Assembly: GCA_965153355.1 (NCBI GenBank)
Contig: OZ231126.1
Location: 34,596,001 to 34,660,000, forward strand
Reading direction: 5' to 3'
DNA: 64,000 nt
Source of the DNA: Flaccisagitta enflata
Taxonomy: Eukaryota
The notes beneath the pieces were generated by a model. That model saw only the letters and a program-made list of their open reading frames with translations. It searched no databases and was not told where the DNA came from. Position numbers and translations under genes: made by a program. This document shows, piece by piece, positions 56,336-62,729 of the stretch; the first letter of the stretch is position 1; every line of letters begins with the position of its first letter.

Positions 56336-59300
56336 ATGGGAGACGGTAAAAAAAGAAGAAAAAGTTATGACGAGACTGAGCATGGTGCCAAAAAAAGGAG
56401 CAAAAAAAGAGAGAATAAAGACAAAAGACACAAAAAATTTAAATCAAAGGAAAATGTCAACGAAGAACCTCTTACCGACGACGAGGTTGTTGACGTTGTC
56501 AGCATTGACGGGCCTGTGGACTTGCACGACGACACTCATGATGCCGCGGGTACCCACGTCAACGACGATGGTGCCAGTGACACTCACAGCGACATCGACG
56601 ATGACTGCGACGCACAGAGCGACGCCCACGAGGTCACGGGCACCGAAAGCAACGACGATTCCGGTGACGATCTAAGTGAAGACGACGATTGCGCAATGGA
56701 GAATTACGACGAAAGGGCGTCGACTTTACCGGCGTCGCCCGCTCCTCACGACGAAAGGGCGCCGACTTTACCGGCGTCGCCCGCTCCTCACGACGAAATG
56801 GCGCCGAATTTACCGGCGTCGCCCGCTCCTCAACCTATGGCATCAATTTCGGGCGATCAATCTCGGCCAACAACTCCTGGCGACAATTACGGAGCGGTGA
56901 TGGAATTCTTGGCCTCTGACGGCGAAGTCCAATTGCGCCAAGTCCCTTGCGGTCAAGATGTGGATGACGCCATCGACGCCCCAATTGGCGCCGGCTTCCC
57001 TCCGCCCATTCCGGGACTTGAACATCGTCAACGAGACATTGCCGCGAGACGCGAGGAGCATCGGGCCGAGGGCACCAACGGCCCCAATTACATACACACC
57101 ATTATCTTCAACAGGTGACCATGATTGCACTTTACCTTCATCTAATGTGTTAGCTTCAATTACATTCAACTTAGTTTAATTAGTCTTAAGTAATCAGCCC
57201 AAATCAACCCTTATAACGTCAAGCACTGCCCTTCATATCAATGTATTTACATAAATTCATTGTATTTTGTTCTTCTTTTTTCTCTCTTTTCATGAAAAGG
57301 GACATACAACAACTCAAACCCGGGCTCACAATGAGAGCCTTTCAAGAGAAGCATTTGGAAACAAAGCCCACCGAAACCACCTGGTTTAGTCACCACTTCA
57401 GGTTAGTAAACGTATACGTGTTACTAAATTCTGCATTTATTTGTTTCTAGAGATGTCATTAACAACACATGCCAACGGTCAATTAAACTGTTCATCTTTT
57501 TTTTTACACTCTTCTTACATTTATCAGATACGTCGAGGGTGGTGCCGTTGATCCTGATAGTGAACACTTTCATTACGTTCAATTTCAAAGTAGGGGTCAC
57601 AAATGGAACTCAGACATTAAAAACTTTGTCAAGGTACCAATAAAGGCGGCTCTCGCCACATGGTCTTTGTGTGTGTGTGTGTGTATGTGTGTGTGTGTGT
57701 GTGTGTGTGTGTGTGTGTGTGTGTGTGTGTGTGTGTGTGTGTGTGTGTGTGTGTGTGCGTGTGTGTGCGTGTGTGTGCGTGTGTGTGTGCGTGTGTGCGC
57801 GCGCGCACGTGTGTATGTGTCTCTCTCTCTCTCTCTCTCTCTCTCTCTCTCTCTCTCTCTCTCTCTCTCTCTCTCTCTCTCTCTCTCTCTCTCTCTCTCT
57901 CTCTCTCTCTCTCTCTCTCTCTCTCTCTCATTTACCTTTCTTCATATAACTTTCACAGAAAATCGCTGATGTCAGACAAAAAGACAAATTAAACGACGGC
58001 CATCTTCGAGTCCAGGACGCAATATTGGGTCGTTCTGGATTGATTACGGCAAACGAGTTACCATGGCTACAAATAGCCACTGCCCTCGTCTGTCCATGCG
58101 ACTATCAGGTTTGCCAACCAATTTCGATTAAATTTCATTCACATAAATTGTTACAGATAAATAAAGCGTCACAGTAATTGCCTATCATGTCAATAAAACT
58201 AACACCATAACAAAAAATGTACACATTTTCTTGTACACAGTCGACTTGCTGCCCGTCGACCGACGAGACACACCTCACTCGACTGCTACACTGTGTCGAT
58301 GTGGATAATCGCCTCGGGAGGCTGAATGCACGCGTTGCCCCTCCGCTTCTCGAATACATACAACAGGTTTGCCCGCACTCCAAATATGTTTCATACTCCA
58401 AATGTGTTTCATACTCCAAATGTGTTTCATGCTTCATATCTATACAACAATTTGTGTCACAATCCTCACACAGGTCGCTACACAGCCACCCGACCAAGTA
58501 GAAGACCAAAGCTGCTTCACCACCTTTCTGCAGCAAAAAAAGCCGACGTTGGCCTTGGACGAGGGCAACCCTGCAATCATGGGCAGACAAGGAAACAAGA
58601 AGCCTACATTGGCATTCAACAACCCTGAATTGGTCGCACCAAAAGAATTGGAATTTCATGGTAATTTGTGCCTCATTTTACCCTCACTACTCTATCTGTC
58701 ACATTTAGCATATAATTGCATACTTTTACGACTTTTTTTTTTCTTACGGCGACAGCCATCATTACTGGTAACTCATAATACCTTCCCATTTTCAGCCAAC
58801 GGCTCGCTCATTGCTTCGGTGGAATGCAACGAAAATATGCAAACCGATTACAACCACAGGACCCTGATTCTGGAAATAATGAAGAAGCTGGAACCAACAA
58901 GCTTTGAAGAATTTTCGCAATCATTATCGCTCGAGATGCATCTCAATCTGGCCGTCCTCTTAAAGGGGTCAAGGTAAACCACGTCTTTGTATCTTGCCTT
59001 CACATTTTACATAGTTAATCTATTTGCATATCAATTTACCCATTTAACAATTGGTTTGTAGTATCTTGCTCTTTTTTTTCCTTGCCATCGTTATTTTTGT
59101 CATGTACATTCCTTCTTTGCACAAATCTTTATCCTTTCACATTTTTTTTCACCTTTCACAGTGAAGCGCTTCAACGGAAGACATTTCGGGCTTACAATCA
59201 ACACAGACAAGCCAGCAAGCGTCAGAAGTCTTACATTCTCCGCCTTGCAGAATTGTAAGTATTCACCCACTGTTGTTGTTGTTGTTGTTGTTGTTGTTGT

Positions 59301-62300: not shown

Positions 62301-62729
62301 TAAATATATCCTCTTATGCCCTAAATCTACCCCTTAGGTCATAAATGTATCCCTTAAACCTCAATTCTACCAATTAAAACATTATATCTATTCTATCAGA
62401 TCTAATTTTTTCTTTCTTTCTTTCTTTCTTTCTTTCTTTCTTTCTTTCTTTCTTTCAGGAGCCAAATAATCGTTGATGGCCCACCGTGCACGATTACGGG
62501 GATGAGTGTCCTCGTATTATGGACAACGTTATTCGAAAACTTCCATTGTTTCCCCGAATTGCCGGAGCCGGGCGCCATGCAACCAAAGTTGCCAGTGTTT
62601 TTTGCCACCATGGCATACTCGAGGGAAACTAAACGCAAGAAGACAAAGAAGACGCGTCAGCGGAAAATCGTCGTGGCAGTTCCTACATCGGATGAAGACG
62701 ATGACGGCAACGAGAGCAATGCCGACTAA
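56336..62729 (+). CDS. Parvovirus NS1-like Rep: putative HUH endonuclease plus superfamily 3 helicase, about 1000 aa, 16 exons, one apparent +1 frameshift
   Basis: Exons 56336-57114, 57300-57401, 57528-57633, 57959-58108, 58241-58366, 58474-58660, 58796-58973, 59162-59254, 59504-59672, 59807-60200, 60327-60359, 60482-60551, 60695-60820, 61167-61263, 61393-61518, 62459-62729; every intron GT-AG and phase-matched. Spliced motifs: Walker A FFITGPSNT|GKTLF, Walker B CVTTDE, B' YKLLFEG..INVKH, motif C PVLVSTN, Arg finger LLNRLYVV; upstream EHFHYVQF (HUH-type). Exon 59807-60200 has one base too many. Confidence 0.85.
59270..59420. repeat. (GTT)n microsatellite in a Rep-gene intron; long (AG)n/(CT)n/(GT)n tracts also at 11303-11372, 24155-24265, 33395-33510, 47612-47780, 49006-49160, 51470-51541, 57668-57929
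   Basis: Seen directly. Confidence 0.97.
61660..62370. repeat. Degenerate 20-21-bp tandem repeat (CTAAATCTACCC core) in the last intron of the Rep gene
   Basis: Repeated TAAATCTACCC cores with a higher-order duplication of roughly 300 bp. Confidence 0.85.

Follow-up and report, generated by a model that had tools for sequence, protein, structure and literature searches.

The DNA analysed here (the window) is a 64-kb stretch, 64,000 nucleotides (nt) long, of Flaccisagitta enflata contig OZ231126.1, and positions are counted from its first letter. At 56336–62729 on the forward strand lies a gene of 16 exons whose spliced product is predicted to end in a superfamily 3 (SF3) helicase of the parvovirus NS1 type. 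The helicase half matched NS1 profiles far above shuffled sequences, and every variant listed in its exons 12 and 13 was silent. We consider it quite probable that the locus is a spliced chromosomal gene with an NS1-type SF3 helicase in its C-terminal third, most likely an old viral capture that has been kept under selection.

The gene model was rebuilt base by base from the DNA over 56336–62729 (+). This reproduced what a sequence-only reading of the window had described, namely 16 exons, 15 GT-AG introns, a product of ~1000 amino acids (aa), and a set of named motifs in a given order. The host-like intron density claimed by that reading was thereby borne out. The introns were 107–940 nt long, a pyrimidine-rich tract stood ahead of the acceptor in 14 of the 15, and G+C content was 50.4% in the exons and 38.4% in the introns. 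The reading had also called the introns phase-compatible throughout, which did not hold: the exons add up to 3007 nt (1 mod 3), and exon 10 needs two frames in the window allele. The features of the gene are as follows.

56336–57114 (+): exon 1, beginning with ATG, an open frame with a GT donor and no homology support; it carries a KKRRK basic patch (56348–56362), a long acidic low-complexity region and, from the repeat search, three 42-nt tandem repeats (56706–56831)
57300–57401 (+): exon 2, bounded by AG and GT and open in the needed phase
57528–57633 (+): exon 3, whose splice-bounded translation contains HFHYVQF (57565–57585), the sole HuH-like motif
57959–58108 (+): exon 4, with a single open frame among three
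58241–58366 (+): exon 5, with the C-terminal end LLEYIQQ (58346–58366) in translation, a candidate Tyr motif without Lys
58474–58660 (+): exon 6, from splice sites and an open frame
58796–58973 (+): exon 7, in which NHRTLILEIMKKLEPTSFEEF (58852–58914) aligns weakly and not significantly to the region between the nuclease and helicase domains of NS1
59162–59254 (+): exon 8, from splice sites and an open frame
59504–59672 (+): exon 9, with three variants, two synonymous and one not
59807–60200 (+): exon 10, translated as a basic Ser/Pro/Lys/Arg linker; its final GPSNT (60186–60200) is the first half of Walker A
60002–60103 (+): frame break of the window allele within exon 10, where the entry frame halts at TGA 60101–60103
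60327–60359 (+): exon 11 (33 nt), where GKT (60327–60335) completes Walker A; once spliced to exon 10, this exon aligns without gaps to the NS1 Walker A
60482–60551 (+): exon 12, aligned to the NS1 profile; 6 of 6 variants synonymous
60695–60820 (+): exon 13, aligned to the NS1 profile, with Walker B TTDELE (60703–60720) and the B' motif KLLFEGLRGNINVKH (60751–60795); 11 of 11 variants synonymous
61167–61263 (+): exon 14, aligned to the NS1 profile, with motif C PVLVSTN (61172–61192) and the Arg-finger stretch LLNRL (61238–61252)
61393–61518 (+): exon 15, into which the NS1 profile alignment reaches, to residue 896
61519–62458 (+): intron 15 (940 nt), filled with a minisatellite of ~20-nt units and holding 11–15 stops per frame
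62459–62729 (+): exon 16, an open frame for the C-terminal tail, which carries a basic patch and turns acidic at its end; stop codon TAA at 62727–62729
63052–63057 (+): candidate poly(A) signal, the first AATAAA past the stop, 323 nt after 62729

On the spliced protein the motifs followed one another as HFHYVQF (residue 307), GPSNTGKT (757), TTDELE (799), KLLFEG..INVKH (815), PVLVSTN (840) and LLNRL (862), with intron 10 splitting Walker A between GPSNT and GKT. Relatives of the helicase were collected by scanning the Walker A peptide of the window in IMG/VR, which gave 66 loci. In a tblastn search with the spliced protein (X at the frame break), only two of the 66 aligned past the P-loop, over 156 and 120 residues; both are 4-kb contigs that encode Pfam Parvo_NS1 proteins. 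A Hamaparvovirinae profile built for this analysis from 62 NS1 relatives and these two contigs (64 natural sequences) matched spliced residues 748–896 with 38.0 bits (E 4e-14 for one sequence). This match crossed all five exon 10–15 junctions colinearly, with gaps of just 1–2 residues. Walker A, Walker B, B', motif C with its sensor Asn, and the Arg finger lay in order within ~110 residues and were column-aligned to the NS1 profile. The sequence-only reading had predicted a viral-type SF3 helicase with all motifs and had proposed an SF3 profile search of the spliced C-terminal half, and this search returned a match.

Because the NS1 family was found through Walker A, the eight Walker A residues were masked and the comparison was repeated. 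The Hamaparvovirinae profile still scored far above the maximum of 2000 shuffles, supporting the prediction even without the P-loop. The scores of the three profiles (unmasked; masked; best shuffle) are as follows.

Hamaparvovirinae NS1 (64 sequences): 38.0–42.2 bits; 18.6–22.2 bits; 4.1 bits
Parvovirinae NS1 (56 sequences): 11.0–14.1 bits; 9.5–11.5 bits; 4.7 bits
Papillomavirus E1 (3 sequences): 20.7–23.2 bits; 4.5–6.7 bits; 5.2 bits

The 56 Parvovirinae sequences came from 61 loci, five of which were dropped: two because their open reading frames (ORFs) were short, and three because the motif lay close to the N-terminus. With equal-sized profiles of three sequences, the masked medians were 10.5 bits for Hamaparvovirinae and 7.3 bits for Parvovirinae. 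In pairwise comparisons without the Walker A residues, the top partners, at 15.8–17.1 bits, were P0048, P0047, P0056, P0061 and P0057, and P0047 is named an Ichthamaparvovirus by its source. Papillomavirus E1 (PPV_E1_C, PF00519) belongs to the same SF3 clan, and its masked score was at shuffle level. The three E1 proteins (L131–L133, IMG/VR) carry GPSNTGKS, almost the same Walker A octapeptide as Hamaparvovirinae NS1 and the window gene; therefore, a P-loop match by itself is not enough to tell which family an SF3 helicase belongs to. Judged by these comparisons, the spliced C-terminal half is a predicted parvovirus-NS1-type SF3 (AAA+) helicase with every catalytic motif.

The helicase phylogeny that had been suggested as a further check was built from 127 helicase cores, but it could not place the window sequence, whose branch measured 2.45 changes per column. 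The best identity of the window core to any sequence of the tree set was 29% over 142 columns.

Haplotypes were compared over the stretch 59470–60880. This stretch was present in 16 of the 24 DNA runs listed, from eight studies, comprising marine and seawater metagenomes and two 'organism A' runs. No RNA run was listed for it, and the metatranscriptomes of the same samples contained next to none of its words. Contigs of four chosen runs (X1, X3, X5 and X7) were aligned on the stretch. Among the 40 variants listed (of 44), 28 were exonic and 12 intronic, and 22 of the 28 exonic ones listed were synonymous. Two of the six non-synonymous variants are adjacent (60192 and 60193) and occur in both X3 and X5; read together they change AGT to TCT, Ser to Ser, and the Walker A serine of GPSNT is kept. 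In exons 12 and 13, all 17 listed variants were synonymous (P ~4e-10 for an expected synonymous share of 0.28, with sites treated as independent), including differences between contigs within X1. This pattern fixes the frames of both exons and shows that the helicase core is under purifying selection, as seen in population variation only. The proposal that the gene reflects long residence or domestication fits this synonymous-only variation.

At the end of exon 9, short contigs of X3 and X5 matched just 59646–59680, with three differences, and then ran into unrelated sequence; the depth of X1 rose over the same positions. These contigs possibly represent a paralogue, or a related species with the same exon.

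Without splicing, the gene left hardly a trace in similarity searches. The exons cut the helicase into pieces of 11–42 residues, apart from the short stretch that ends exon 10. Pfam searches with 10 separate exon pieces found no SF3 family at E values up to 10, exons 13 and 14 retrieved nothing relevant from PDB by sequence, and the NS1 profile reached a best E of 0.42 among the 1510 six-frame ORFs of the window. With nothing to be recognised in isolated exons or in six-frame ORFs, the gene can be seen only in its spliced form. When 126 viral helicase proteins were searched by tblastn against the 64-kb window alone, the best E was 0.002; a genome-scale tblastn screen would miss the gene. The prediction that it would escape ORF-based screens is supported by the Pfam, six-frame and tblastn results.

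Protein databases gave a similar picture. A word-indexed search with exon 13 among longer proteins returned only P0004, an unspliced ORF of the same locus in an ENA contig. A full phmmer search with exon 13 against 1.84 billion representatives returned P0004 and five proteins matched in 4–9 stretches each; these five were taken as noise, and the two that were examined (P0067 and P0070) are repeat proteins. Related loci were found neither with exon 10 in viral contigs nor with exon 13 and P0004 in metagenome contigs.

The sequence-only reading had also assigned the protein an HUH endonuclease, and we found this assignment unsupported at the sequence level. The protein has a single HuH-like string, HFHYVQF at residue 307, and a HuHuu string arose in 2.7–3.2% of 20000 shuffles. 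The catalytic Tyr motif of parvoviral and CRESS Reps is Y-x-x-K, and in the parvoviral alignment A3 its Y150 and K153 are invariant. No Y-x-x-K was present between residue 310 and the helicase, where the nearest candidate is LLEYIQQ at 415. Profiles of the N-terminal half of NS1 scored −4.6 bits (Hamaparvovirinae) and −0.8 bits (Parvovirinae), with shuffles reaching up to 5.9 and 5.1 bits, respectively. An hhalign comparison gave only an E 0.12 match over 22 columns in the inter-domain region, which was not significant. A decayed origin-binding or nuclease domain may lie ahead of the helicase.

Exon 10 carries the frame break of the window allele. It consists of a basic linker with two SPRK sites (59933–59953 and 59975–59995) that form a 42-nt duplication, and the GPSNT at its end needs another frame than the entry frame, a frame that is open only from 59877. 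At 60002 the contigs of X1, X3 and X7 lacked 4 letters relative to the window, and behind 60057 the X1 contig had 4 additional ones. As a result of these length differences, exon 10 keeps one frame in the X3 and X7 haplotypes, while the window and the major X1 contig are broken at different places and reach a shared stop. The X5 contig had no coverage of 60002. Contigs lose minor variants, and X1 could also contain intact alleles. The window copy as assembled would give only the N-terminal two thirds of the protein unless the break is bypassed.

Several points weigh against a captured viral gene that still makes a selected helicase. Two of the four exon 10 haplotypes (the window and the major X1 contig) are unable to encode the helicase as one protein. 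Exons 1–8 were drawn from open frames and splice signals alone, with no support from homology or variation, and all exon junctions were predicted from DNA, none having been observed in a transcript. The samples behind the variant contigs were mixed, and some variants may belong to a paralogue, as the loose ends at 59680 suggest. Because the tree gives the sequence a very long branch and no place, the sequence comparisons do not identify the viral donor lineage. The profiles cover Hamaparvovirinae, Parvovirinae and three E1 proteins, and the comparison leaves out Densovirinae, Bidnaviridae, CRESS Rep, polyomavirus large T (LT) and D5-type helicases.

The alternative that survives best, which we regard as rather improbable, is a gene in decay: the helicase was once under selection but is no longer needed, and alleles with a broken frame drift in the population. 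In favour of this, two distinct length variants ahead of the helicase break the frame, one in the window and one in the major X1 contig. However, the 17 synonymous variants of exons 12 and 13, some of them between contigs of X1, speak for continued constraint, all catalytic motifs are intact, X3 and X7 read through, and X1 may also contain intact copies.

The frame break could also be explained by a small unrecognised intron spanning 60002–60061, which would give 17 exons and bring all alleles into frame. Both length variants lie within ~60 nt and neither is a multiple of three, as in non-coding sequence, and in-frame GT..AG pairs bracket them, for example donors 59953 or 59959 with acceptor 60067. 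Yet none of the 78 in-frame GT..AG pairs within exon 10 has a pyrimidine tract like that of the real introns, the stretch resembles the exons in being rich in G+C and purines, and a single frame runs uninterrupted across it in the X3 and X7 haplotypes. We judge such an intron unlikely and give this explanation little credence.

We assign a similarly small chance to the possibility that the gene is no single domesticated copy but part of an element that is multicopy or still moving, for example a Rep/helicase transposon with introns or a lineage of endogenous viruses. The possible paralogue at 59646–59680, where X3 and X5 contigs diverge and X1 depth rises, and the co-occurrence of several haplotypes in X1 would agree with several copies. 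Several observations argue otherwise. The repeat search of the window found no inverted repeats flanking the gene besides simple repeats, and no terminal hairpins were found. None of the 1510 window ORFs was a second NS1-like piece or capsid-like, the best E for a five-sequence Hamaparvovirinae capsid profile being 1.4. An introner-like origin found no support either: no intron matched another intron or other parts of the window, except for two short intron 1 matches. Finally, the known eukaryotic transposons with an HUH initiator, the Helitrons, combine it with a superfamily 1 (SF1, Pif1-like) helicase in their Rep/Hel protein. The window gene differs from these chromosomal elements in having an SF3 helicase and an unproven HUH domain, and no element ends were found at the locus.

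That the motifs resemble those of SF3 helicases by chance, or because splice sites were picked to fit them, is rejected for the helicase half as highly improbable: although the model was first built by eye and no single exon matches an SF3 family, the masked profile match exceeds all 2000 shuffles, is colinear over five junctions, and stands on exon frames confirmed by synonymous-only variation. For exons 1–8 this objection may still apply. The claim that the model as a whole is more than chance holds for the helicase half, through the profile comparison, and for exons 9–13, through the variation, and does not extend to exons 1–8.

The closest known system is the NS1 protein of the Hamaparvovirinae (ichthama- and chaphamaparvoviruses; Pfam Parvo_NS1, PF01057). 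Both share, at the same spacing, the Walker A GPSNTGK[ST], an acidic Walker B followed by EP, the B' motif K..FEG....I.VK, the motif C ..TN and the N-R Arg finger. Identity of the window protein to these proteins was at most 29% over 142 columns, with the window sequence unplaced in the tree. The window gene has 15 introns, whereas the viral gene is intronless or nearly so. From the HuH motif to Walker A there are 450 residues in the window protein and ~220 in the viral alignment. Unlike the viral gene, the window gene has neither a detectable nuclease domain nor an adjoining capsid gene, and its product of ~1000 aa carries acidic and SPRK-rich additions.

Endogenous parvoviral elements (EPVs) resemble the window gene in being parvovirus-derived replication-gene sequences fixed in a host chromosome. 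The setting of the window gene agrees with this: a parvovirus-related coding sequence with spliceosomal introns is embedded in 64 kb of repeat-rich eukaryotic DNA, filled with microsatellites and with ~33–47% G+C. In the sections of the published sources drawn on here, co-option is proposed for some EPVs, such as the guinea-pig enRep-Myo9 fusion, chapparvovirus-like EPVs are described from arachnids and insects (PMC6631224), the EPVs described are colinear with viral genomes, and parvovirus-like genes of aphids are annotated with one or two introns (PMC10759679). Compared to these elements, the window gene has 15 introns and a similarity to sampled viruses too low for a tblastn screen, and no VP gene, terminal hairpins or colinearity with a viral genome were found at its locus. 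A search of full-text literature, in which supplements were not covered, found no description of an NS1-derived gene with a comparable number of introns.

Taken as a captured viral gene, the locus suggests the following course of events. A parvovirus-like replication gene would have been captured long ago. Later, 15 spliceosomal introns would have entered it, and it would have acquired a basic SPRK linker and an N-terminus that is long and acidic, with the helicase core retained by purifying selection. The protein has all of the Walker A Lys, the Walker B Asp-Glu, the B' motif, the sensor Asn and the Arg finger. By analogy with NS1, Rep and E1, the protein would be nuclear and would act as an ATP-using ring that moves on DNA. 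Our best guess at its role in the host is a co-opted factor in DNA transactions or in interference with viruses. A more specific proposal, which we put forward tentatively and with somewhat less than even confidence, is that an ancient NS1 capture with 15 introns, host-style extensions, no recognisable nuclease and an ATPase core that remains under strong purifying selection represents a cellular SF3 helicase gene family of viral origin.

EPVs are usually found by translated searches as intronless stretches colinear with viruses. Provided that it is expressed, the window gene would count as a virus-derived host gene with unusually many gained introns, offering a handle on how fast captured genes are colonised by introns in this lineage, and catalogues of viral captures would be biased against old, host-adapted ones. 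If the more specific proposal is true, similarity searches on unspliced DNA would systematically miss a whole class of viral genes that have become deeply 'hostified', with the window gene as an example.

Other features of the window were recorded as well, while Rfam had no match on it. Directly upstream of the gene and on the same strand, 53530–55953 (+) is an intronless open frame of 807 codons, rich in Ser, Pro and acidic residues, with four zinc-finger-like Cys/His spacings at its C-terminus and no Pfam family at E 0.01. Just past the stop of the gene, in the presumed 3' untranslated region (UTR), 62880–63272 contains two direct copies of ~160 nt that are 94–99% identical and 224–237 nt apart. 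The reverse-strand open frame at 63486–64000 (−), of 170 codons, runs off the window end and matched no Pfam family. Farther away, 40807–42375 (−) is a long tandem array with three open frames, in which a peptide unit of ~19 residues recurs; its Pfam Flavi_DEAD match was rejected as a repeat artefact (0 stretches passing). The exon-like ORF at 29826–30056 (+) matched the C-terminal domain of ribosomal protein S5 (Pfam E 1.2e-09). Its match to cytosolic uS5/RPS2 chains in PDB was only moderate (best 40 bits, ~45% identity by eye), and it is therefore a divergent copy or a pseudogene; a protein search with this exon returned nothing. Among the 117 ORFs outside the gene, one matched the autophagy-receptor zinc finger Zn-C2H2_12 of Pfam (E 1.9e-07).

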